Source: Candidatus Hydrogenedentota bacterium
GTDB taxonomy: Bacteria > Hydrogenedentota > Hydrogenedentia > Hydrogenedentales > SLHB01
Direction: 5' to 3'
Length of the DNA stretch: 10,105 nt
NCBI GenBank assembly: GCA_029974275.1
Contig: JARKSN010000086.1
Coordinates: forward strand, 1 to 10,105
A program made the position numbers and the translations under genes. Below are positions 1 through 9,969 of this stretch, piece after piece. Position 1 is the stretch's first letter; each line of letters begins with the position of its first letter. The notes beneath the pieces are model-generated. The model was not told where the DNA came from. It worked only from the letters and a program-made list of their open reading frames with translations, and did not search any database.

Positions 1-390
1 GCACAGGGCCGTTCCTCGGCCCAGCAATGCGCGCGCAATCCCAAACGTCAAGGCCACGTTCAAAGCGGCGAGCAGCGCCGAGGGGGCGCGCATGGACGCC
101 TCCCCGTCGCCGAAGAGCAGAACAAACAACGCAAGCAGGTAATTGTGGGTGGTTCCGCTGACGTACAGCGTGCCGCTCGGCAAGAGCGGAAGCCCTGTCT
201 GGGCAATATGTTTGGCGACAAAAATATGTACAAGCTCATCGTGCCACAACGACGGCTTCGCCAGATGCGCAAAGCCCAGAGCAAGCGAAAGCGCAACGCA
301 CGCCCCAAGCGCCGCCCACTCCCAGCGCGCCATGGGCGCTGAACCATTCTCAGGGGCGCGATGCGCGGACAAATCAAGCGACGGATGCAT
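1..390 (-). CDS. GT-C fold membrane glycosyltransferase (GT39 / ArnT / PMT_2-like), 5' part only; runs off the left edge
   Basis: Manual translation from ATG at 390 gives 130 codons with no stop: MHPSLDLSAHRAPENGSAPMARWEWAALGACVALSLALGFAHLAKPSLWHDELVHIFVAKHIAQTGLPLLPSGTLYVSGTTHNYLLALFVLLFGDGEASMRAPSALLAALNVALTFGIARALLGRGTALC. A first TM helix is followed by SLWHDE (WHDE at 235-246), then 'FG..E...R.PSA' and another TM helix, the typical GT-C N-terminus. GAGGAG lies about 12 nt upstream. Alternative start at ATG 333. Confidence 0.85.
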   Translation of the reverse strand, partial: MHPSLDLSAHRAPENGSAPMARWEWAALGACVALSLALGFAHLAKPSLWHDELVHIFVAKHIAQTGLPLLPSGTLYVSGTTHNYLLALFVLLFGDGEASMRAPSALLAALNVALTFGIARALLGRGTALC

Positions 391-429
391 AGGTCTTCAC
401 GTCTCCTCACGCGTTGTACAGGCCCACCG

Positions 430-458
430 AGTATAGGCGGCCAACGCGGCGCGAGCAA
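430..458 (-). promoter_or_regulatory. Putative sigma-70 promoter for the GT-C gene
   Basis: Minus strand TTGCTC (458-453), 17-nt spacer, TATACT (435-430), about 40 nt upstream of ATG 390. Confidence 0.55.
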
Positions 459-470
459 CCAGCGCCCACC

Positions 471-499
471 GTGCGCCAGGAGTTGGACATTCGTATAAT
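471..499 (+). promoter_or_regulatory. Putative sigma-70 promoter for the Alg14-radical SAM/Alg13 operon
   Basis: Perfect TATAAT at 494-499 in GC-rich DNA, 37 nt before GTG 537. The -35 position at 17 nt spacing (GTGCGC, 471-476) is weak. Confidence 0.45.
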
Positions 500-536
500 A
501 GAACGCGGCACAATTCTTTGACGCCTAGGAACTTTC

Positions 537-2615
537 GTGCACTTCGAATCGGAAAACGAAACGGATCAGAACGGCTCGACGCGTTCGGACAACGGCGCCG
601 TCGATCTGTCCTTGCCGCCGGGGAGGACGCCCGTCGATCAATCCCGCAGAGCCGTCGATGAACGCGCTGAACGCTGCATCGCGCCCGAAGATTTTCGCCC
701 CAAACGCATCAAGATATGCTTGACCTGTTCGCATGGCGGGCATCTTACCGAGATGTTGGAATTGCAGGAGGCCTTCGAGGGACACGACACCTTCTACTTT
801 TGCTACGACGCCGACACGACGCGTCGCTTGCCCAACGCGCATCTCATCCCGAACATGGCGCGCAATCCTGTGGAATTTGTCAAAAACCTGTTCCGTGTCC
901 ATCGACTTTTCAAGCGAGAAAAACCCGATCTCGTCATTTCCACCGGCGCGGAGATCGCCATCCCCGTTGCGATCAACGCCAAATGGCTCGGCATAAAGAT
1001 GCTCTACATCGAATGCGGCGCACAGGTGACGCGCCCCTCCATCACGGGGCGCCTGCTGTACTGGATGGCCGATTGGTTCTACGTGCAATGGCCGGAACTC
1101 TTGCAGCGCTATGGCCCGAAGGCGATGTTGCGCGGCAGCCTGGTTGACGAAGACAGGCCATTCCCCGGCGATCGCAGCGACGAACGCCGCATGAAAGCCT
1201 CGCTCGTGCAACCCGCACAAGTCGGCGCCTTCTCGAGCGACCAACCCCCCATGGGCCTGGGGTACATCGCATCGGTGTTGCAACAGCACGGCTGCGAAGT
1301 GCGGCTGCTCGACGCGAACGTCGAGAAACTCGGCCCCCTGGACGTCACGCGCATCCTCGCCCAGCAACAGCCCGATCTCGTGGGTTTCACGATCACAACC
1401 CCGTTGTTGCCCAGCGCGTTGGCGATTGTGCGGCGCCTGCGCACGCTTCCAAAGCCTCCGGTGCTCATCGCGGGCGGACCGCACGCCACCGTTCTGCCCG
1501 GCGATTTGCTGCAAGACGGCATGTTCGATTACGTCGTGCGTTCCGAAGGCGAAGAGACCATCGCGGAACTGATCGAACGCCTGCTTGCGGGACAAGACGC
1601 CGAGGGCGTCGAGGGCGTTTCATGGCGACGCAACGGCGAGATTGTCCACAACCCGCCGCGAGCGTTGTCGCTGAAATTTGAATCTTTCCCCTATCCCGAT
1701 TGGTCGATCTTTCCGCTTGACCGTTATTCGAGCATGGCGCGACGCAACGACTACGGCCTGCCCATCGCGACGAGCCGCGGCTGCCCCTATGGCTGCACGT
1801 TCTGCTATAAGGGCGTCTACGGCCGCAAGATCCGCATGCGCCGTCCCGAGAACGTCGCCGACGAATGGCAGTTTCTGATCGATCGCTATCGCGTGCGCGA
1901 GATCGCCGTGCTCGACGATGTCTTCACCCTGCGCGCCGACCGCGCGATGGCGGTGTGCCAGCTCCTCATCGAACGCGGCCTGAACCGCGTTCCGTGGAGC
2001 ACCGTCAACGGCATCCGCGTCGACAACGTCACGCCGGAATTGATGCGCGCAATGCACGATGCGGGCTGCTACCGCGTCTATTTCGGCATCGAGTCGGGCG
2101 TCGAGGCCGTCATCCGCAAACTCAACAAACGCATCAAACTCGACGACGTGCGTTACGCCGTCAGGACGGCCCAGGAGGCGGGACTCGAAGTCGGCGGCTA
2201 CTTCATGCTCGGAAACATCGGAGAAACGCAAGCCGACATGGAGCAGACGATTCGCTTTGCGCTCGAACTCGATCCCGAGTACGCTCAGTTCACCATCGCC
2301 ACGCCCTATCCCGGAACGGTGATGTATCAGCAGGTGATGGACGGCGGCAAGCTGCTCATCAACTCCTGGGAGGAACTTGCAACCTATGGCGCCGGCGTCT
2401 ACGAACTCGGCGATATCACCCCCCAAGTCGTCGGCGCGAAATATCGCGAAGCCATTCGCCGCTTCTACCTTCGCCCGAAGACGATCGTGCGACAGATCCC
2501 CAACCTGCTGACGTGGACCGGCTTCAAACACAGCATCCTTGCCGGATGCCTGCTGATTAAACTGGCGTTTTTGGGCGGACGAAAACGCGTCACCGCAAAG
2601 AAAATCTTTCCATGA
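537..2615 (+). CDS. Fusion protein: Alg14/PssD/CpsF-like glycosyltransferase subunit + B12-binding domain + radical SAM domain (class B radical SAM enzyme)
   Basis: GTG start with AGGA 6 nt upstream. 708-1145 carries Alg14/PssD motifs (KICLTCSHGGHLTE, KPDLVISTGAEIAIP, YIEC..QVTRPSITGR, FYVQWPEL, GSLV). About 1191-1590 is a cobalamin-binding domain (PPMGLGYIASVL, PDLVGFT, IAGGPHAT, DYVVRSEGEET). The radical SAM core has TSRG-CPYGCTFC (CxxxCxxC at 1782-1805), DDVFT, FGIESG, YFMLG..GET and ATPYPGT. No stop between the domains. Confidence 0.92.
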   Translation: MHFESENETDQNGSTRSDNGAVDLSLPPGRTPVDQSRRAVDERAERCIAPEDFRPKRIKICLTCSHGGHLTEMLELQEAFEGHDTFYFCYDADTTRRLPNAHLIPNMARNPVEFVKNLFRVHRLFKREKPDLVISTGAEIAIPVAINAKWLGIKMLYIECGAQVTRPSITGRLLYWMADWFYVQWPELLQRYGPKAMLRGSLVDEDRPFPGDRSDERRMKASLVQPAQVGAFSSDQPPMGLGYIASVLQQHGCEVRLLDANVEKLGPLDVTRILAQQQPDLVGFTITTPLLPSALAIVRRLRTLPKPPVLIAGGPHATVLPGDLLQDGMFDYVVRSEGEETIAELIERLLAGQDAEGVEGVSWRRNGEIVHNPPRALSLKFESFPYPDWSIFPLDRYSSMARRNDYGLPIATSRGCPYGCTFCYKGVYGRKIRMRRPENVADEWQFLIDRYRVREIAVLDDVFTLRADRAMAVCQLLIERGLNRVPWSTVNGIRVDNVTPELMRAMHDAGCYRVYFGIESGVEAVIRKLNKRIKLDDVRYAVRTAQEAGLEVGGYFMLGNIGETQADMEQTIRFALELDPEYAQFTIATPYPGTVMYQQVMDGGKLLINSWEELATYGAGVYELGDITPQVVGAKYREAIRRFYLRPKTIVRQIPNLLTWTGFKHSILAGCLLIKLAFLGGRKRVTAKKIFP

Positions 2616-2637
2616 CCAAGCAACGAAACGGAATGCG

Positions 2638-3126
2638 ATGATCTACGCCACCGTGGGCACGATGTTCCTGGACTTTCCCAGGCTGATTCGAAAACTCGAC
2701 GCGATCGCCGAAACCACCGGCGAACGTATCGTCATTCAGACCGGCCTTGGCGCCACGCTTCCGCAACGCTGCGAGTTTTTTGATTTCAAATCGCGCGACG
2801 AAGTCCTCGCGCTGCAGCAAGAGGCGCGCGTCATCGTCTGCCACGCAGGCATTGGCTCCATACTCGATGCATTGTCCGTGCGCAGGCCCTTTGTCGTTGT
2901 GCCGCGACGGCTGCAATTCAATGAGCACCTCAGCGATCATCAACTCGAAATCGCCGAGGCCATTCAACGTCGCGCCTGGGGACGCATGGTGCTCGACATC
3001 GACGACTTGCCCGAGGCATGCGCCGCACCGCCCGCCGTCTACGCCTCGTATCGCCCCGCAAAACACCGTTTAATCAGCGCCGTCCGCGATGCGATCGAAC
3101 GCGTCGCGGCAGCGAAAAATAGATGA
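2638..3126 (+). CDS. Alg13/PssE/CpsG-like glycosyltransferase subunit (GT28 C-terminal-like, nucleotide-sugar-binding half)
   Basis: MIYATVGT..FPRLI, IQTG, FDF, IVCHAGIGSILDAL, VVVPRR...EH..DHQLEIAE are the characteristic Alg13/PssE motifs. It lies 22 nt after the gene carrying the partner Alg14-like domain. Confidence 0.92.
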   Translation: MIYATVGTMFLDFPRLIRKLDAIAETTGERIVIQTGLGATLPQRCEFFDFKSRDEVLALQQEARVIVCHAGIGSILDALSVRRPFVVVPRRLQFNEHLSDHQLEIAEAIQRRAWGRMVLDIDDLPEACAAPPAVYASYRPAKHRLISAVRDAIERVAAAKNR

Positions 3127-3181
3127 TTATTTTTGATCCGGCCTTGTTCCGATACGCCGCCGCCGCCGCCTCCCAAAATCA

Positions 3182-3223
3182 TGTGGTATAGTACATACAG
3201 AGTCGGAACCCTGAACGAGGAGG
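3182..3223 (+). promoter_or_regulatory. Extended -10 promoter and strong RBS for the small ORF at 3231
   Basis: TGTGGTATAGT (3182-3192) matches TRTGnTATAAT. GAGGAGG at 3217-3223 is 7 nt before the ATG. No recognisable -35 (a GCC repeat occupies that position). Confidence 0.55.
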
Positions 3224-3230
3224 CGTCGCC

Positions 3231-3446
3231 ATGAAAAACGCATATCTCTTCGATCAGACGCCCTACAAACGTCAAGGGCCCAGAATATCGGCGGCGGGCC
3301 CAAGGCGTTCGGCCATGCCCGGAGACGTCCGAAGGGCGCTATACCGCATGAAAGAGACCCTATCGGGAATCACCCCTGAAGTGAAATGGGGACGCGAACG
3401 ACGCTACCAAGAACTCATGCGCAGTCTGGGCCGCAAGAAGCCATAG
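3231..3446 (+). CDS. Small basic hypothetical protein (71 aa)
   Basis: Ideal Shine-Dalgarno and an upstream extended -10; fills an otherwise empty gap. About 18 K/R versus 6 D/E. No family recognised. The 3' end overlaps the convergent gene by 32 nt. Confidence 0.6.
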   Translation: MKNAYLFDQTPYKRQGPRISAAGPRRSAMPGDVRRALYRMKETLSGITPEVKWGRERRYQELMRSLGRKKP

Positions 3447-5082
3447 CCCCGCGCGGGACACGCGTCCCCATGAGAGCATCGGCCAAGACGATCCCAGAAC
3501 TCGCCACAGAAAGGGTCACGTAGCTATCCGGGGTGATGTCAAACACCCCAAGGGGGGCCCATTGCCCCTTGAAATCCCTCTGGCGCAGGCGAACTTCGCT
3601 GTCCCCCCGAGGCGTATGGACCACATACGTCGTTTCATCGGCATGATGTCCGCGCTGATCGGGAATCCAGACCGAAAGCGTATGCGGGCCCTGTGCCTGC
3701 GGGGGGAAATTCCAACGGCAAGAAGACGGAATGCGCCCCCCCCGAGTGAAATAATAGTGCCCATGAAACGCCGAACGATTGGATTGGTTTGGCCAAAACC
3801 CCTCCAACGCCACGTCCTGGCCACGAATATCCACGATGAACGAGTCCTCCGGCGTTATATAGCGAGGCTTGGCCACAAGGTTTCCGGTGACGGCTGCATG
3901 CGCGCCTTCCTCGAGGACGACGGCATTTTCACCGCTGAACATGTTTGCGGCAATAACGGCGCCCTTCACGTCTTTCCCGATGCGTATGGCCTCCCCCGCC
4001 TTACCGAAACGGCAGCCGTTGACGGCAATCTGGCCCGTCACCGCCTTGACGCACGCCTTGGGTTCGAGCTGGGATCGCCAGTCTAGAAAATGACATTGGT
4101 TGAAGCTGACAAAACCATCGCCCGCCACATGCGCGCACTGGTCGCTCAACCCCCAAAACGCGCAATTGTTGAACTGAACCGTGCCATTGTGGGATTGATC
4201 CACGCAAATCTGCACGGGATTCTCGCCAAATATCGCCACGAACTCGCCATTGGATATCAACAGACCGTAGGGCGCGCTATTTTCAACCCACACGGAAACA
4301 TTGCACGCGTCCGCGCCCAAACCGATGAAGTTGCCATTGCAGACCCCGCTATCCCCCTCGATAAAGCGATACCCCACGCGATATCCCCAGCAAAACGTAT
4401 TGAGCACATGCTGCCAGTCGGTTCGCCCGAAAATGAACGCCTCGCCATGCGATTGCACAAAAGAGCGAAAAACAGGGTTGCCCATCGATTCGGGATAGAA
4501 CGGCCAGAAATGAACGGTGTCGATGCGTCCGATGTCAACGACTCTATCCACCAGGATGCCGCGCCGCAAGGGAGAGCCAAAAACGCGGCTGATCAAATGA
4601 CGGTTGGTCATGTGCCTGCCCATGTGAATGCCCTGGTAGGGATTCACCAGGAGACAATCGATCACGGCGGCGTCTCCTCCCTCCCCGCCTTCCACGCACC
4701 ATGGATACGGCGCGACCTCGCTTCCCGATTGTTCCGGATAGTGCACCGCAAGCCCCTTCAACACGGCATTGGCGCACAACGCAATGAACGGGGCTCCGTC
4801 CTCTTCGCCGCGCCCTTCGTATGCGAGCAACGTGGCGCCGCGCCCCGGCATCCAACGGCGCGGAGAGGTCGCCACGCCCTCAAGCGTAACGTCATTGGGC
4901 ACCGTCACATGCCCTGCAATCGCGCAAAGCCCCGCAGGAAGCCGCACCACCCCGCCGCCGCGATCTCCGCACGCGTCCAAGGCGTTCTGAAGAGCGCCGG
5001 TATTGTCCGTCTGCCCGTCAAGCACGACGCCAAAATCACGGGCATCAATATGATCGCCAGTTTCGAAAGAAATGTTTTTCAT
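3415..5082 (-). CDS. Right-handed beta-helix protein (pectate lyase superfamily / GH28-related) with C-terminal golvesin/xanthan-lyase CBM-like domain
   Basis: Start reassigned to ATG 5082 (MKNISF..., AGGAGG at 5100-5095); 555 aa. The N-terminus DARDFGVVLDGQTDNTGALQNALDACGDRGGGVVRLPAG...VTLEG is the Pectate_lyase_3-type cap, followed by beta-helix coils (NNCAF, NQCHF, NGCRF). 3472-3840 (FIVD..G.W..G.Y..W..W..TYVVH..Q..GQW..LGVF..VTL..G.VLADAL) fits the golvesin-like beta-sandwich. Confidence 0.78.
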   Translation of the reverse strand: MKNISFETGDHIDARDFGVVLDGQTDNTGALQNALDACGDRGGGVVRLPAGLCAIAGHVTVPNDVTLEGVATSPRRWMPGRGATLLAYEGRGEEDGAPFIALCANAVLKGLAVHYPEQSGSEVAPYPWCVEGGEGGDAAVIDCLLVNPYQGIHMGRHMTNRHLISRVFGSPLRRGILVDRVVDIGRIDTVHFWPFYPESMGNPVFRSFVQSHGEAFIFGRTDWQHVLNTFCWGYRVGYRFIEGDSGVCNGNFIGLGADACNVSVWVENSAPYGLLISNGEFVAIFGENPVQICVDQSHNGTVQFNNCAFWGLSDQCAHVAGDGFVSFNQCHFLDWRSQLEPKACVKAVTGQIAVNGCRFGKAGEAIRIGKDVKGAVIAANMFSGENAVVLEEGAHAAVTGNLVAKPRYITPEDSFIVDIRGQDVALEGFWPNQSNRSAFHGHYYFTRGGRIPSSCRWNFPPQAQGPHTLSVWIPDQRGHHADETTYVVHTPRGDSEVRLRQRDFKGQWAPLGVFDITPDSYVTLSVASSGIVLADALMGTRVPRGAMASCGPDCA

Positions 5083-5316
5083 ATGGGGAAAGGGCCTCCT
5101 TACGCCCAAACACGCTATGATTCCCTGCCGCGCATCGCGCTTGGCCCGGCAGTCCACAAACGGCGAGAGCATACGCTCACGCCCTGGACAAAGCAATTTT
5201 CCCCTGACCAATGCCGCGCTCCCACTGCATGTTCGTGAAAATTCTCGCGCGCAAACCCGATCGTGCGATAAGACCGTGTCCCGCATCACGTTGCATCGTC
5301 CATGAACAACACGGAC

Positions 5317-5344
5317 TAAAGATTGGAGGCTCGATTGCCGATGA
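5317..5344 (+). promoter_or_regulatory. Putative sigma-28 (FliA/SigD) promoter
   Basis: TAAAGATT (5317-5324), 12 nt, GCCGATGA (5337-5344), compared with the consensus TAAAGTTT-N11-GCCGATAA (TAAA-N15/16-GCCGATAW). Confidence 0.6.
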
Positions 5345-5433
5345 ACTCTCCAGCGACGGCGTACGGCCCTTGGGCCGTCTCACGAGGCGTTCCCTTCGGG
5401 GGACATAATGCGATGCCCTTCGCCATAAAGGGC

Positions 5434-5447
5434 ATGCAGGGATGCAT
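5434..5447 (+). promoter_or_regulatory. Putative CsrA/RsmA-binding hairpin overlapping the RBS
   Basis: ATGCA-GGGA-TGCAT is a 5-bp stem with GGA in the loop. AUGCAGGGAUGC matches RUACARGGAUGU at 10 of 12 positions and ends 4 nt before ATG 5452. Confidence 0.45.
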
Positions 5448-5451
5448 ACCT

Positions 5452-6033
5452 ATGGATATCTCCATCTCCGCTATTTCTCTTCGGTATCAGTATGAAGCGT
5501 ACGCCATTCAAACCTTTGACAGAACTGCTGCGGACGGACAGAACGCCGCAAAGCCGACCTCGATGCTGAACATGCCCCAGGACGTCATTGATTTCGGAAA
5601 GAGCAGAGCCTTTAGCGCGCAAGACGCCATTCGCATCGTCAACGAGCGCATGATGGAGAAACTGCGCGGCGTGGTGGAGGGAGCCCAACAAGCGATCGGC
5701 ATGAACGGCATGGCGATGATTGACACTTCCGCCGAAGCGACCGCCGGACGCATCGCCGACTTCGCATTGGGATTCTTCGAGGCCTGGCGCAAAAACCATG
5801 CTGATCTCGGCGATGACGACGCCCGCAAGCAGTTCGCCAGCTTCATCGGAGCCGCAATCAAGCAGGGAATCGACGAAGCCAGCGGCATCTTAACGGCCCT
5901 GAACGCCCTGACCCCGCAAAACACGTCGCTCATACAAAATATCGCTAGCATCGTCCAGCAACGACTCGACGATTTCGTGTCCGGCAACGCCGATCCCGCG
6001 ACCCGATCCAACGGAAAGATTATGGCGGCATAG
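5452..6033 (+). CDS. DUF5610-like domain protein
   Basis: DTSAEATAGRIADFALGFFEAW...FASFIGAAIKQGIDEASGILTAL matches my recollection of the DUF5610 signature. Start placed at ATG 5452 (AGGGA 9 nt upstream) because the track's TTG 5323 lies inside the putative promoter; ATG 5413 and 5434 are alternatives. Confidence 0.7.
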   Translation: MDISISAISLRYQYEAYAIQTFDRTAADGQNAAKPTSMLNMPQDVIDFGKSRAFSAQDAIRIVNERMMEKLRGVVEGAQQAIGMNGMAMIDTSAEATAGRIADFALGFFEAWRKNHADLGDDDARKQFASFIGAAIKQGIDEASGILTALNALTPQNTSLIQNIASIVQQRLDDFVSGNADPATRSNGKIMAA

Positions 6034-6048
6034 CCTGCGACCAGGCTA
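6031..6048. other. Short inverted repeat between convergent genes, built from both stop codons
   Basis: TAGCCTG-CGAC-CAGGCTA is a 7-bp perfect stem whose outer triplets are the TAG stops of the two genes. No U-tract. Confidence 0.4.
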
Positions 6049-8673
6049 CTCCGGTCTAAATTTCTGTATCCGGTTGTTGTAGGTGTCTGACACGTAGACA
6101 TTTCCAGCGGCATCCACCGCCACGCCGCCGGGAATGACAAATTGGCCGTTGCCGGACCCAAGCCCTCCCCAAGCGCTCAAAAACGCGCCCGAGGAACTCA
6201 AACGCTGGATACGGTTGTTACCGCTGTCCACGACGTAGACGACTCCGGCGGCATCCACCGCCACGCCGCCCGGATTCAAGAACTGCCCTGTGCCGGTTCC
6301 CTGACTCCCCCAGGCCGCTAGAAAAGCGCCGTTGCCGTCGAATTTCTGGATGCGGTGATTGCTGGAATCGGAGACATACACGTTCCCGGAAAAATCCACC
6401 GCCACGCCGGACGGATTCGTGAAGCGGCCGTTCGTTGTCCCAGCCCCCCCCCATGTCCGCTGAAAAACGCCGCTCGCGGAAAACTTTTGTATCCGATTGT
6501 TGCCATAATCCACGACGTACACATGGTTGGTCGCATCCACCGCCACGCCCACCGGGCCGTTGAATTTTCCGTTGGAGGTCCCCTGACTGCCCCATGCGAT
6601 CACAAAGCCTCCGGTAGAGGTGAACTTCTGGATGCGGTGGTTCGCGGTGTCTCCCACATACACATTGCCGGAAGCGTCCAACGCGATGCCGATAGGATTC
6701 TTGAATTGACCGTTTCCAGTCCCCAAACTCCCCCACGCGGCAAGAAAAGCGCCGCCGGAATCGAATTTTTGAATGCGACTGTTTCCACTGTCCGCTACAT
6801 ATACATTCCCGGACCCGTCCGCCGCCACGCCGGACAAATACCGGAACTGGCCAGGGTCTGATCCGGAACTCTCCCAGTTGGAAACAAAAACGCCTGCCTC
6901 CGTGAATTTCTGGATACGGCTATTGGAATCGCCCGCATAGACATTCCCCTGCGCATCCGCCGCCACGCAGATCGGATAATTGAACTGGCCATGGGAAGTC
7001 CCCAAACTTCCCCAAACCGCCACAAAGACGCCGGTCTCCGTGAATTTCTGGATGCGGTGATTCCCCATGTCCGCGACGTAGACGTTGCCGGCGGCGTCCA
7101 CAGACATTCCGGCAGGATACAGCAGTTTTCCATTGCCGGAACCCTGGCCGCCCCACGACCCCAAAAACGCGCCCTGGGAAGAAAATCGCTGAATCCGGTT
7201 GTTGTTCATGTCCCCAATGTAGACCGCACCCGATGCGCCTACCGCCACGCCGATGGGCGTGTTGAATTGACCGTTGCCCGTCCCCTTGCTGCCCCAGGCG
7301 CGCACAAAGCTTCCACTTCCGGAGAACTGCTGAATGCGGTTTCGGGAAGCGTCGACAACATACACATTGTCGCCGGAATGGTCTGTCGCCACGCCCACCG
7401 GATACTGAAACTGGCCATCGCTGGTCCCCTCGCTCCCCCAGGCGGTCACAAAAGCCCCGCCGGAAGTGAATTTTTGGACGCGATAATTGCCGGCATCGGT
7501 GACATACACGTTGCCCAAGGCGTCCACGGCCACGCATTCCGGAACGTTAAACTGGCCTGGGCCCGCGCCGGGACCGCCCCAGGAATCGATGAAAACGCCA
7601 TCTGGCGCGAATTTCCGAATGCGGTGGTTGTACGTGTCCGCGATGTACACATTGCCTGCGGCGTCCGTCGCCATGCCATCCGGCCCAGCAAAATACCAAG
7701 GTTGCGCCAATTCGGGCCACATCCGATCAAAAAAATACCCGCCCACGGGTTCGTTGTGCAGAATGGCGTCGCTTTTCACCGCCGACTCCCCAGCGGCGTT
7801 TCGCACCTTGAAATAAACCGTCTTCGTCTTGTTCCCGGGGGACAGCGTGAATGATGGCGCAGAGTCGTAGGGCCGCCACGCGGCGCCCACAAACGTCGCC
7901 GATTCCGACGCCATGTATTCCGCCGGCTTTCCCGTACAAACATTCTGCAACGTGACCGTGGCGGAAGCGGTTTCGGCAGCGCCGTTGTTGATGGAAAAAA
8001 CCGAGACGGCGGGCGTCACCACGAGTTCGTACGCTATCGAGTCGCTGACGGCGGGCGAATCGTCTATCGCGCTTTTCACCTTGAAGTGCACGGTCTTGAG
8101 CCCATCGCCGACGGAAAGCGTAAACGAGGGGCAGCCCGAGTAGGCTTGCCACGAAGCATCCGAAAAATCCGCCTGTTCCGAAGCCATATAGTGCGTTGGC
8201 GCTCCCTTGGAAACATTATTCAGCGTGACGGTGCGTGAATAGGAAAGCGAGGCTCCGTTGTTGATCGCCATCGCCGTCACGACAGGCGCGATAGGCGCAT
8301 TGGGAACCAGGGGGTCGGTCCCGTCATACGCCTCCTGGCCATCGTAAATGCCGTCGCCATCCGTGTCGGGCAAGGCGGGATTCGTGCCCAACCGGATTTC
8401 GGCCGCGTCGCACAGACCATCCTTGTCGGCGTCGATAGACAAGCGCAATGCGGCGTTGATCACGAGTTGAACGTCCATCGCGTCCACCGAACCGCTGAAA
8501 TCAATATCCACGGGGTACACCACGGGCATTTTGAGCGCGGCGTTGATGATCAACTGAACGTCCATCGCGTCCACCGCGCCGCTGCGATCTATGTCAGCGA
8601 CGACAATCGCCCACGCCTGCGCAGCGATTACACAACCTAGCGCCGTCATTCCCACAATACGCAACATACGCAT
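6046..8673 (-). CDS. Secreted multidomain protein: signal peptide, dockerin-like duplicated EF-hand module, bacterial TSP3-like repeats, two Ig-like repeats, 12 NHL repeats
   Basis: Start ATG 8673 (AAAGG upstream); 875 aa. Signal peptide MRMLRIVGMTALGCVIAAQAWA. Then 2x DID.SG.VDAMDVQL.INAAL, DADKDGLCDAAE..GTNP..PDTDGDGIYDGQE..GTDP, 2x INNGA..TVTL.NV..G.P..YMASE..F..A.W..Y..PSFTLS.G..KTV.FKV, and 12x F..P.GVAVD..GNVYV.D..N.RIQKF. Confidence 0.9.
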   Translation of the reverse strand: MRMLRIVGMTALGCVIAAQAWAIVVADIDRSGAVDAMDVQLIINAALKMPVVYPVDIDFSGSVDAMDVQLVINAALRLSIDADKDGLCDAAEIRLGTNPALPDTDGDGIYDGQEAYDGTDPLVPNAPIAPVVTAMAINNGASLSYSRTVTLNNVSKGAPTHYMASEQADFSDASWQAYSGCPSFTLSVGDGLKTVHFKVKSAIDDSPAVSDSIAYELVVTPAVSVFSINNGAAETASATVTLQNVCTGKPAEYMASESATFVGAAWRPYDSAPSFTLSPGNKTKTVYFKVRNAAGESAVKSDAILHNEPVGGYFFDRMWPELAQPWYFAGPDGMATDAAGNVYIADTYNHRIRKFAPDGVFIDSWGGPGAGPGQFNVPECVAVDALGNVYVTDAGNYRVQKFTSGGAFVTAWGSEGTSDGQFQYPVGVATDHSGDNVYVVDASRNRIQQFSGSGSFVRAWGSKGTGNGQFNTPIGVAVGASGAVYIGDMNNNRIQRFSSQGAFLGSWGGQGSGNGKLLYPAGMSVDAAGNVYVADMGNHRIQKFTETGVFVAVWGSLGTSHGQFNYPICVAADAQGNVYAGDSNSRIQKFTEAGVFVSNWESSGSDPGQFRYLSGVAADGSGNVYVADSGNSRIQKFDSGGAFLAAWGSLGTGNGQFKNPIGIALDASGNVYVGDTANHRIQKFTSTGGFVIAWGSQGTSNGKFNGPVGVAVDATNHVYVVDYGNNRIQKFSASGVFQRTWGGAGTTNGRFTNPSGVAVDFSGNVYVSDSSNHRIQKFDGNGAFLAAWGSQGTGTGQFLNPGGVAVDAAGVVYVVDSGNNRIQRLSSSGAFLSAWGGLGSGNGQFVIPGGVAVDAAGNVYVSDTYNNRIQKFRPE
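6049..7695 (-). repeat. 12 tandem NHL repeats (about 47 aa / 141 bp period), coding
   Basis: Twelve units counted in the translation. Visible on the + strand as recurrent ccaccgccacgcc and gaatttctggatgcgg-like words. Confidence 0.9.
8446..8595 (-). repeat. Duplicated dockerin-like Ca-binding loop-helix (29-aa period), coding
   Basis: Identical 22-mer tgaacgtccatcgcgtccaccg at 8468-8489 and 8555-8576, 87 bp apart. Confidence 0.75.
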
Positions 8674-8796
8674 GATATCTGTGCCTTTTTTCTGTTTTGC
8701 CGTTGTTGACATACCCAAGCGGTTCTTCTCAAAGGGTAACGGGGGTGGATGGAAGAGTCAAACGGTCGCGCCTCATGCATGGGCGGGCTTTTCGCC

Positions 8797-9969
8797 TCAG
8801 GACAGCGCTCCTTGGGGAAACCGTTTGACGACGATAGGGTAGCCTTCCCAGACATCGCCCAGGCAGGTGCCTACGGAGCGGGCCGCCAGGAGCAATGGGT
8901 GATCCGGCGACACAATGCGCCGTTTGCCCACCACGTCTTTCAGGGGGACCGGCACAAAGGCCTCGCCGCGCTTGGCAATCATGACGCCAAACCGTCGGCG
9001 CAGCACGCATTCGGCGGCGTGCGTGCCAAATTCAGTGCAGAGAATGCGATCGGCGGGCGTCGGGATGCCTCCCCGCTGCAAATGTCCCAGCGAAGTCACG
9101 CGCGTTTCCAGACGGGTCGCTTGTTCCAGATGTTCGGCGAGTATCGCACTGACAGGCTCTTTGTAATGCCCCCCCGCTCCATTTTTCTTCGCGCCGTTCT
9201 TCTTGTCCTTTGCATCATGCTTCTTGGGAATCGCCGTCCGGGGCACGGCTCCTTCGGCCATCGCCACGATGCTGAACATCTTGCCCTGGCGCATGCGATC
9301 AAGCAAGGACTGCGCCACCACGTCCATAGAGTAAGGAATCTCGGGAATGAGGATGACGTCCGCCCCGCCCGCCACGCCTGCCCCCAACGCCAACCAACCG
9401 GCATTGTGACCCATGATATCGACCACCATGACGCGGTGATGACTCGATGCCGTGGTGTGCAATCGATCGATCGCCTCGGCGGCTATGCTCATCCCGGTAT
9501 CGTATCCGAAACACACATCGGTGCCGTACACGTCGTTGTCGATGGTTTTGGGCACGGTGACGACATTCAGGCCTCCCTTTGTCATCAGGTGATAAGCGCC
9601 TTTCTGGGTGCCGCCTCCTCCCAGACAGATAAGGCAATCCAGATTGAGGCGGCGATAGGTCTCTACCGCGGCGCCCGTCATGTCCCGCACATTTCCATTG
9701 GGCGCGGGCATTTTGTTGGGTTTGTTCCGGCTTGTGCGGAGAATCGTCCCTCCTAGGGTTAACAGTCCCGCCGTTTCGCTCGGTTCGAGCTTGAGGTAGC
9801 GATTTTCGACAAGCCCCGTAAAGCCCTCGAAAAAACCGAAGACCTCGACCCCTTCCATGCCCACTCCGCGGACAATGGCCCGAAGAACCGCGTTCAGTCC
9901 TGGACAGTCCCCGCCAGAAGTCAATACGCCAATCGTTTGCACACGTTTCAGAGGGCTCTTCTTCGACAC
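8797..9969 (-). CDS. pfkA: 6-phosphofructokinase, PfkA family (group III / mixed-substrate-type, probably ATP-dependent)
   Basis: IGVLTSGGDCPGLNAV, GGTILRTSR, LGGGGT, VPKTIDND, FGYDT, DRLHTTASSHHR, MGHNAGWLAL, LIPE, AEGA, LGHLQRGG.P...DR. GTG start with AAGGA about 6 nt upstream. Confidence 0.95.
   Translation of the reverse strand: MSKKSPLKRVQTIGVLTSGGDCPGLNAVLRAIVRGVGMEGVEVFGFFEGFTGLVENRYLKLEPSETAGLLTLGGTILRTSRNKPNKMPAPNGNVRDMTGAAVETYRRLNLDCLICLGGGGTQKGAYHLMTKGGLNVVTVPKTIDNDVYGTDVCFGYDTGMSIAAEAIDRLHTTASSHHRVMVVDIMGHNAGWLALGAGVAGGADVILIPEIPYSMDVVAQSLLDRMRQGKMFSIVAMAEGAVPRTAIPKKHDAKDKKNGAKKNGAGGHYKEPVSAILAEHLEQATRLETRVTSLGHLQRGGIPTPADRILCTEFGTHAAECVLRRRFGVMIAKRGEAFVPVPLKDVVGKRRIVSPDHPLLLAARSVGTCLGDVWEGYPIVVKRFPQGALS

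Follow-up and report, generated by a model that had tools for sequence, protein, structure and literature searches.

We analysed a window of 10,105 nucleotides (nt) that is an entire contig (JARKSN010000086.1, C313 in our numbering) of the Candidatus Hydrogenedentota assembly GCA_029974275.1. It contains a gene in which a PssD/Cps14F/Alg14-like glycosyltransferase subunit is joined to a B12-binding domain and a radical S-adenosylmethionine (SAM) core. The fused gene is one unbroken frame of 692 codons, and the gene for a PssE-like partner subunit starts 22 nt downstream of it. The features on which the argument rests are the following, residues being numbered in the fused protein.

537..2615, forward strand: fused PssD-linker-B12-binding-radical SAM gene, GTG start, 692 amino acids (aa), assigned with Pfam and NCBIfam
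537..701, forward strand: N-terminal extension, residues 1-55, variable and probably disordered; true start uncertain
702..1145, forward strand: PssD/Cps14F/Alg14-like domain (NF041549), the N-terminal, acceptor-side half of a split GT-B glycosyltransferase, with the loop CSHGGHLTEM
1146..1190, forward strand: 15-aa linker DEDRPFPGDRSDERR, residues 204-218, with a D-R-S-x-E-R/K-R core, placed by alignment
1227..1571, forward strand: B12-binding (Rossmann) domain, residues 231-345 (PF02310)
1770..2261, forward strand: radical SAM core (PF04055), with CxxxCxxC at nt 1782-1805
2514..2573, forward strand: amphipathic C-terminal helix, residues 660-679, TWTGFKH..LL.KLA..GGR, from the structure model and conservation in fused homologues
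2638..3126, forward strand: PssE/Cps14G/Alg13-like subunit (PF04101), the C-terminal, donor-side half of the split GT-B enzyme, 162 aa

The initial annotation had described a single frame carrying an Alg14/PssD domain, a charged linker of about 15 aa, a B12-binding domain and a radical SAM domain with an intact CxxxCxxC motif. Pfam and NCBIfam searches confirm this composition, and the coordinates of the linker and of the methionine encoded at nt 1191 (M219) hold as well. Alg14 (PF08660) was matched at residues 111-198 with 53.1 bits (cut-off 27), and the PssD profile NF041549 aligned end to end over its 151 positions with residues 61-202 at 125.7 bits (cut-off 110). In the genome-wide profile search the latter score was 129.4 bits, and the fused gene is the sole PssD of the genome. 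A glycine-rich loop of the GT-B N-domain, CSHGGHxxEM, which we take to be the signature of the PssD/Cps14F/Alg14 family, lies at residues 63-72 and is identical or nearly identical in the N-terminally complete fused homologues and in three stand-alone PssD proteins. The B12-binding domain scored 78.5 bits (cut-off 32.1) with identical coordinates in the genome search, and Radical_SAM (PF04055) scored 83.7 bits at residues 412-575 (cut-off 29.5). Both the three cysteines of the CxxxCxxC motif (C416, C420 and C423) and a GGPH sequence at residues 313-316 are almost invariant in an alignment of 73 rows. Residues 1-55 are unconserved across 37 fused homologues, and the homologue P0003, which is 96% identical, shares the start position of the window frame.

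No transmembrane segment was found in the fused protein, in which hydropathy reaches a maximum of 1.5 over 19 residues within a Rossmann strand, and the protein has no N-terminal membrane anchor of the eukaryotic Alg14 type. The stand-alone PssD proteins of relatives open straight at the catalytic domain and leave no space for an N-terminal helix either, so that such an anchor is not a defining property of the bacterial PssD family. The C-terminal helix at residues 660-679 (hydropathy 1.4 over 19 residues, under the typical transmembrane value) is a possible membrane-surface anchor.

The fused gene is a genuine, inherited three-domain protein and not an artefact. Contigs from four public metagenome runs, belonging to four studies, span nt 1145-1191 without a gap, and no insertion or deletion was listed within 537-2615. 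Two of these runs represent diverged strains, with 37 and 7 substitutions in the bridging pieces; the best-matching run, possibly the sample from which the window itself came, was not counted as independent. The stop or frameshift at the junction that the initial annotation had proposed to look for by mapping was thus not seen. In a word-indexed search of 5.8 billion protein clusters, 36 of the 120 clusters listed (P0003-P0038; 608-715 aa, 56-96% identity) carry PF08660, PF02310 and PF04055 together, and wherever a source is named it is a metagenome-assembled genome of Candidatus Hydrogenedentes/Hydrogenedentota. The database names of these proteins are 'PssD/Cps14F family glycosyltransferase' or 'radical SAM protein'. 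A HMMER pass over 1.84 billion representative proteins returned, among its best 150 matches, a single fused representative of full length (P0012) and three fused forms that are short or decayed (P0085, P0233 and P0245). Within the phylum, sampled at one genome per species, the full-length fused gene is present in 9 of 135 genomes and in 8 genera, all of them in one family (8 of its 53 genomes plus the window's own genome). Two of the fused genes (G022 and G014) had been flagged as having stops inside; these are terminal stops, and both genes are uninterrupted frames of 734 aa.

Alignment of 37 fused proteins with stand-alone proteins places the seam precisely. Stand-alone PssD ends in '...GSLIDE' and the stand-alone radical SAM enzyme starts with 'MKxxLIQP', and between these points the fused proteins add some 13-15 residues with the conserved D-R-S-x-E-R/K-R core, in frame in all 37 homologues. 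D212 of the linker is invariant in a further alignment of eight rows (A4). At the position of the former radical SAM start, 20 of the 37 have methionine and 17 do not, and in 7 of the latter the residue is F, I or P. Because F, I and P cannot be encoded by ATG, GTG or TTG, a separate internal start is not a general route to the radical SAM domain. The proposal that only a product beginning at ATG 1191 might be made is answered in part by these 17 homologues.

The partner gene is, in line with the first proposal, Alg13/PssE-like. Its product matches Glyco_tran_28_C (PF04101) with 50.9 bits (cut-off 22) and the PssE profile NF041548 with 91.9 bits, below the cut-off of 120, and the motifs HAGIGS and EH..DHQ are invariant in 13 orthologues. 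The catalytic motifs of both proteins are intact. A contig of one run from a diverged strain (X6) has an extra A after 3114, which shifts the last four PssE codons, and a 3-nt deletion at 3169.

We modelled the fused protein with AlphaFold2 on the 73-row alignment. The mean predicted local distance difference test score (pLDDT) was 87.5, only residues 1-41 and 689-692 falling below 50, and the predicted template modelling score (pTM) of 0.87 suggests a fixed packing between the three domains. The initial annotation had also proposed a complex prediction with the product of 2638..3126, and this favours binding: the interaction prediction score from aligned errors (ipSAE) was 0.88 over three runs (0.87-0.89), compared with 0.00 for the best control. 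The runs share at least 93% of their contacts, and the partner pLDDT is at least 85. When the tool was calibrated, 116 of 157 solved complexes attained this ipSAE value, as did 2 of 215 mismatched pairs; these figures apply only roughly here, where our own alignments were used. In the predicted complex the C-terminal helix of PssE (residues 138-161) packs on the PssD domain, and PssE also contacts residues 254-277 and 390-391 of the B12-binding/radical SAM part. The model supports the view that the PssD-linked protein pairs with PssE into a complete glycosyltransferase. Taken together, these results support the central proposal of a split Alg14/Alg13-type (PssD/PssE) glycosyltransferase whose PssD half is truly and heritably fused to a class-B-type radical SAM enzyme.

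The nearest solved folds are MgmA (9ccb), a glutamine C-methyltransferase, and AprD4 (6fd2), a sugar diol-dehydratase, with a template modelling score of 0.75-0.77 for AprD4. TsrM, CysS, OxsB and TokK come next, and the N-terminal part is weakly like GT-B enzymes of the MurG type. E-values of the solved-fold matches lie between 1e-19 and 1e-23 at sequence identities of 15-24%. From its domains and its modelled fold, the fused enzyme appears to be a cobalamin-type (class B) radical SAM protein.

How the fusion arose can be read from relatives that lack it. In at least 15 related genomes PssD stands alone, with 54-72% identity to residues ~50-210 of the fused protein, and the best match of these genomes to the radical SAM part is only 27-36% identical, which is the level of paralogues. 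PssE directly follows stand-alone PssD in 5 of the 7 loci examined. All 7 of the fused loci have a PssE orthologue after the fused gene, and in one of them (G004, L014:11522-14026) a gene for a GH38 alpha-mannosidase lies between the two. Since the non-fused relatives keep pssD and pssE adjacent, a radical SAM gene appears to have been inserted between them and fused in frame to pssD.

A FastTree phylogeny of 145 B12 radical SAM sequences places the 37 fused domains in one clade (support 100). This clade lies within a larger one of 60 rows (support 99), made up of stand-alone enzymes of ~460 aa from other phyla; those of the window genome's own paralogues that the tree contains are far away. 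No bootstrap was run for this tree, from which P0085 was excluded as a decayed form. The internal stop of the paralogue on C331 was set to X, as any stop in a row derived from a locus would have been, and the radical SAM-methyltransferase of locus L031 was cut to its first 480 residues. In the tree of the PssD domain (44 rows, 149 columns) 3 of 41 branches are supported, and fused and stand-alone sequences interleave without support. A single origin was judged on the radical SAM tree because the PssD-domain tree is too poorly resolved to speak for or against it. We read the fusion as one insertion-fusion event.

In two of the fused loci the fusion is immediately preceded by a second gene for a B12 radical SAM enzyme, encoding proteins of 544-588 aa (G015, L013:11410-13176; G004, L014:7866-9500). 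These proteins hold a distant position in the tree, are unrelated to the fused radical SAM part and match best, below the cut-off, the NCBIfam family of the Sden_1168 P-methyltransferase. No orthologue of them was found in the window genome.

Among stand-alone orthologues, those closest to the radical SAM part share 40-47% identity with it, and we examined their neighbourhoods in four genomes, the records of two of which are labelled 'Patescibacteria group' and 'Omnitrophota'. All four loci come from one sampled phylum, in which 4 of 301 genomes carry the gene. Each of the four is a cluster of glycan genes; the gene contents are listed here by locus, with GT2 glycosyltransferases numbered as labelled in our analysis.

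L030: STT3, S41 protease, GT2-246, DUF2304, radical SAM, B12 radical SAM, GT2-TPR, PMT_2
L031: methyltransferase, GT4, an unassigned gene, B12 radical SAM-methyltransferase, B12 radical SAM, GT2-323, GT2-241
L192: GT2-339, DegT aminotransferase, B12 radical SAM
L193: two B12 radical SAM genes, GT2-338, methyltransferase, B12 radical SAM, GT2-240, DUF2304, TPR protein

GT2 genes stand beside the stand-alone radical SAM gene in all four loci, DUF2304 in two, and PMT_2 together with STT3 in one. Two further loci were left out of these counts: L032, which is too short, and L033 (a 'Hainich' bacterium), where the simple frame caller missed the radical SAM gene and no glycan genes were found at E <= 1e-5. 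The same kinds of gene recur in Hydrogenedentota relatives without the radical SAM gene, whose order is PMT_2 on the minus strand, PssD, PssE, GT2-335/368, GT2-240 and DUF2304. Over its full length, GT2-335 of Hydrogenedentota shares 41-44% identity with the GT2 that comes directly after the stand-alone radical SAM gene in L030 and L031, and GT2-240 is 41-47% identical to its counterparts in L030, L031 and L193. The best profile matches of GT2-240 are PpgS, AglJ, dolichyl-phosphate hexose transferase and ArnC, and those of GT2-335 are MftF, EpsD and AglG, in every case below the equivalog cut-off. GacJ and Rv3632 belong to the DUF2304 family; they are small membrane proteins that both bind and stimulate the polyprenyl-phosphate-sugar synthases GacI and PpgS, after which a GT-C enzyme, GacL, moves the sugar outside the cell (bioRxiv 10.1101/180810).

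Because these GT2/DUF2304 neighbours are shared across phyla, the conserved partner of the radical SAM clade is a polyprenyl-phosphate-sugar pathway. The PssD tether is thus a later, lineage-specific addition to this link. More remote searches added no closer relatives: archaeal proteins are 31-38% identical to the radical SAM part, no nearer than the genome's own paralogues; among the matches listed in a metagenome scan with alignment A1, identity was at most 38%; and an ESM Atlas look-up returned only generic 'B12-binding radical SAM' clusters.

Upstream of the fused gene the contig begins within a gene for a membrane glycosyltransferase, separated from the fusion by a short divergent region.

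1..390, reverse strand: PMT_2-type GT-C glycosyltransferase, N-terminal 130 codons, divergent from the fused gene and running off the contig start, found with tblastn
391..536, strand not assigned: divergent intergenic region between PMT_2 and the fused gene, no open reading frame assigned

The 1..390 product is 59% identical over 113 aa to residues 58-170 of the PMT_2 protein that stands beside a stand-alone pssD in one relative (G039), and 51% identical to that of G004. The rest of the gene (residues 172-562) was located at 8885..7719 of an 8885-nt contig, C184, so that C313 and C184 are probably genomic neighbours. With 1..390 identified as the PMT_2 N-terminus, the local order of PMT_2 on the minus strand, fusion and PssE matches that of G004, G014, G039 and G028. 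A forward-strand frame at 1..342 was considered as the upstream gene and rejected in favour of PMT_2 on the minus strand; nor does it show similarity to the C-terminus of the extra B12 radical SAM gene of G015 and G004. The region 391..536 may hold the promoter. A scan of 300..3500 found no sigma-70-like promoter and two terminator-like sites, fewer than in shuffled sequence. Among the public runs listed with matching sequence there was none of RNA.

We propose that the locus encodes a tethered pair, a PssD/PssE glycosyltransferase and a radical tailoring enzyme acting on the same polyprenyl-linked sugar, with export of the product through PMT_2 and with a single fusion event behind the architecture; we give this reading as a whole a probability of roughly 0.55. 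The PssD-PssE pair would work on the cytoplasmic side of the membrane, where it would act on a polyprenyl-phosphate-linked sugar, and the radical SAM domain would tailor that same lipid-linked saccharide. C-methylation would be the most likely chemistry, with ring contraction or deoxygenation as alternatives. The edited glycan would then be flipped, and the PMT_2-type GT-C enzyme of the divergent gene would transfer it outside the cell. In evolutionary terms, a radical SAM gene that is the usual companion of the GT2-335/GT2-240/DUF2304 module would have been inserted once between pssD and pssE. The initial annotation's ordered channelling, glycosylation first and radical modification second, with a C-methylated or rearranged sugar as product, is more conjectural, and either step might come first.

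Several observations weigh against this reading. The radical SAM part fails every NCBIfam equivalog cut-off, so that its chemistry is not readable from homology: HpnJ (TIGR03471) scored 187.3 bits against a cut-off of 577.6 (4.8e-55) and BchE (TIGR02026) 184.9 bits against 481.35, and methylase families (ApyD, the Sden_1168 P-methyltransferase, MgmA and HpnR) score similarly, far below their cut-offs. AprD4, one of the two closest folds, is not known to use cobalamin, and there is no sequence motif diagnostic of cobalamin use. CobS (PF02654) was not found in the window genome, the completeness of which is given as 100%. The same genome has 18 B12-binding domain matches, most of them in frames of ~440-620 aa, the size of B12 radical SAM enzymes; this number together with the lack of a CobS match suggests cofactor uptake and a strong reliance on imported corrinoids. 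The GT2-335, GT2-240 and DUF2304 orthologues of the window genome lie on C248 beside another PMT-family GT-C gene and not by the fusion, and none of the loci examined showed a priming phosphoglycosyl transferase. Alg14 was not found in the whole genomes of four near stand-alone relatives (L030-L033, for which completeness is not given; L030 and L031 are also among the four neighbourhoods examined), and the radical SAM substrate therefore need not be a PssD/PssE product. The complex model may have passed merely through its likeness to single-chain GT-B enzymes such as MurG. Finally, four homologues (P0040, P0041, P0042 and P0085) have an intact PssD domain and lack the CxxxCxxC loop and much of the barrel; these four independent losses of the same loop suggest that the radical chemistry is dispensable or optional in some lineages.

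Other decayed forms are of two kinds. P0039 has kept the radical SAM part and lost the PssD glycine loop, and P0233 and P0245 (~310 aa) consist of PssD plus a stub. P0039 and the four homologues without the CxxxCxxC loop are each a single metagenome cluster and may be misassemblies.

With architecture and substrate class left as proposed, the radical SAM domain might rearrange or deoxygenate the lipid-linked sugar instead of methylating it, for example by the hexose-to-cyclitol ring contraction proposed for HpnJ and calditol synthase (Cds) or by 1,2-diol dehydration as in AprD4. We consider this possible, if rather doubtful. In its favour, the best NCBIfam match is HpnJ with BchE close behind, neither of them a methylase, and one of the two solved folds nearest to it is that of AprD4, which dehydrates sugar diols. 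The same holds for precedent, as the accessible part of one paper describes HpnJ as following a GT2 enzyme (HpnI) and a deacetylase on a lipid-linked sugar and Cds as the proposed contractor of a lipid-linked glucose (PMC13459092). However, all scores of the HpnJ/BchE type are far under the family cut-offs and the methylases score alike, the C-methyltransferase MgmA is the top match in the PDB by both structure and sequence, and most characterised class B enzymes are methylases, as far as the available part of a review goes (PMC12931638).

A less probable alternative is that the radical SAM domain acts outside the PssD/PssE reaction and that the fusion merely co-localises or co-regulates the members of one envelope pathway, with no hand-over of substrate. 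The substrate might then be the polyprenyl-phosphate-sugar donor made by GT2-240/DUF2304, the product of GT2-335, a peptide or a lipid chain. The four relatives' genomes in which Alg14 was not found are consistent with this, as are the four stand-alone loci, which keep GT2 (two of them with DUF2304), and the decayed variants, which keep one domain and lose the other. Other members of the family are fused to class I methyltransferases or to more radical SAM modules, not to glycosyltransferases. On the other hand, the linker is short (15 aa) and conserved, the domains pack tightly in the model (pTM 0.87), PssE is predicted to touch the B12-binding/radical SAM part too, and the fusion has been maintained across 8 genera. 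We give a negligible probability to an artefact of assembly or sequencing and to a misreading of two genes as one: we found nothing to support it beyond the fragmentation of the window's assembly (342 contigs), and against it stand the 36 independent clusters from several sources, the 9 genomes, the gap-free contigs of four runs including the two diverged strains, and a linker conserved and in frame in 37 homologues.

The preferred reading of a tethered glycosyltransferase and tailoring enzyme has a more specific form, which we regard as unlikely but attractive for what it would imply. The fused protein and PssE would form a three-domain machine that builds a disaccharide on a polyprenyl-monophosphate carrier supplied by the GacI/GacJ-like GT2-240/DUF2304 pair, adds a C-methyl branch or contracts the sugar to a carbocycle within the complex, and passes the product to PMT_2 for delivery to the cell surface. 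If true, this would be the first split Alg13/14-type enzyme on a monophosphate carrier, and the first demonstration that a class B radical SAM enzyme edits a lipid-linked glycan of the bacterial envelope. An orphan clade of B12 radical SAM enzymes that spans phyla would thereby gain a substrate class.

The separate components have well-studied counterparts. PssD/PssE of Rhizobium leguminosarum, Cps14F/Cps14G of Streptococcus pneumoniae type 14 and Alg14/Alg13 of eukaryotes are likewise split GT-B enzymes encoded by two adjacent small genes, and pairs of these types add the second sugar to a lipid-diphosphate-linked sugar. The window proteins resemble PssD/PssE pairs in that the N-half is above the PssD cut-off, the C-half matches PF04101 and the two are predicted to form a heterodimer through the C-terminal helix of PssE. 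Unlike such pairs, the window PssD half carries 474 extra residues (the B12-binding and radical SAM domains) and no N-terminal membrane helix, and the window PssE is below the equivalog cut-off. GenK, GenD1, MoeK5 and Fom3 methylate carbons of sugars or phosphonates. They share with MgmA (9CCB), AprD4 (6FD2), TokK, OxsB and TsrM, and with the fused protein, an N-terminal Rossmann B12 domain followed by a CxxxCxxC barrel, whereas none of these enzymes and solved relatives is fused to a glycosyltransferase subunit.

There are unfused precedents, HpnI/HpnK/HpnJ and Cds, for a glycosyltransferase acting first and a radical SAM enzyme second on a lipid-linked sugar (PMC13459092). In the hopanoid cyclitol ether pathway of HpnI, HpnK and HpnJ, a glycosyltransferase similarly acts before a radical SAM enzyme with a B12 domain remodels the lipid sugar; HpnI, however, is a GT2 enzyme and unfused, whereas the window glycosyltransferase subunit is fused. 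HpnJ is the best NCBIfam match of the window radical SAM part, but at 187 bits against 577.6 the latter is not an HpnJ. Cds of Sulfolobus acidocaldarius is likewise a radical SAM enzyme, for which contraction of a glucose linked to a lipid has been proposed (PMC13459092). The ~240-aa GT2, DUF2304 and GT-C genes conserved in the relatives and in other phyla match the pattern of GacI/GacJ/GacL in Streptococcus pyogenes and PpgS/Rv3632 in Mycobacterium tuberculosis, in which a polyprenyl-phosphate-sugar synthase is accompanied by a small activator and an extracytoplasmic transferase (bioRxiv 10.1101/180810). Those systems have neither a radical SAM enzyme nor a PssD/PssE pair, and in the window genome only the GT-C gene adjoins the fusion.

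A published description of an Alg14/PssD-B12-radical SAM fusion was not found in the literature searched, which left most subscription journals outside its reach, and the earlier statement that no protein of this architecture had been described stands within those bounds. A 2026 review of B12 radical SAM enzymes names GenK, GenD1, MoeK5 and Fom3 among the B12-dependent enzymes and does not contain the words 'glycosyltransferase' or 'fused' (PMC12931638). Taken singly, both components are familiar, the split glycosyltransferase being of the PssD/PssE type and the radical SAM enzyme of the class B type; their covalent fusion has been deposited in databases but is unstudied.

The searches also returned other architectures. 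Eight other long HMMER matches, scanned against Pfam, comprised tandem radical SAM proteins, radical SAM-methyltransferase fusions and one intein form, with no glycosyltransferase fusion among them. P0123 (2331 aa, 7 matched stretches), P0153 (2096 aa, 7), P0127 (2279 aa, 6), P0168 (1820 aa, 6), P0137 (2012 aa, 5), and P0145 and P0237 (4 each) are apparently tandem B12 radical SAM modules in one chain. In P0190 (918 aa) an intein with a LAGLIDADG homing-endonuclease domain lies between the B12 domain and the radical SAM core. PssD orthologues also occur without a PssE nearby in two relatives: in G011 (L024:8353-9846) PssD follows a GT2 domain in one fused protein (497 aa), the gene of which adjoins one for flagellin, and in G010 (L023:8748-9257) it follows FliD and FliS. 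This flagellar context hints at flagellin glycosylation.

The genes downstream of PssE, PFK among them, are unrelated to the glycan genes that follow PssE in relatives. A 71-aa frame at 3231..3446 on the forward strand has a GGAGG box before its ATG and no match in related loci or in the rest of the genome. Next come a protein of 624 aa that has a Golvesin domain at its C-terminus and a match of the pectate-lyase kind at its N-terminus (3415..5289, reverse strand), a 236-aa DUF5610 protein (5323..6033, forward strand) and a protein of 890 aa in which 11 NHL repeats occur together with a bacterial TSP3 repeat and a weak match to dockerin (6046..8718, reverse strand). The last of these scores above the cut-off for ScyF, a scytonemin PEP-CTERM protein (442 bits against 350), probably owing to its repeats.

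Class B radical SAM enzymes are represented by over 220,000 sequences, and substrates are known for only a few dozen of them, according to the review (PMC12931638). Fusion to a subunit that binds lipid-linked sugars acts as a 'Rosetta stone' in this setting, as it provides a testable substrate hypothesis for the fused protein. Through the GT2-335/GT2-240/DUF2304 neighbourhood the hypothesis extends to the whole stand-alone clade, found in uncultured bacteria with small genomes that are recorded under the labels Patescibacteria group and Omnitrophota. The protein also offers a naturally tethered pair of glycosyltransferase and radical enzyme for structural work. Hydrogenedentota are common in digesters and wastewater, to judge from the runs with matching sequence, and our results suggest that their cell-envelope glycans may carry radical-installed modifications, which have so far not been sought chemically.

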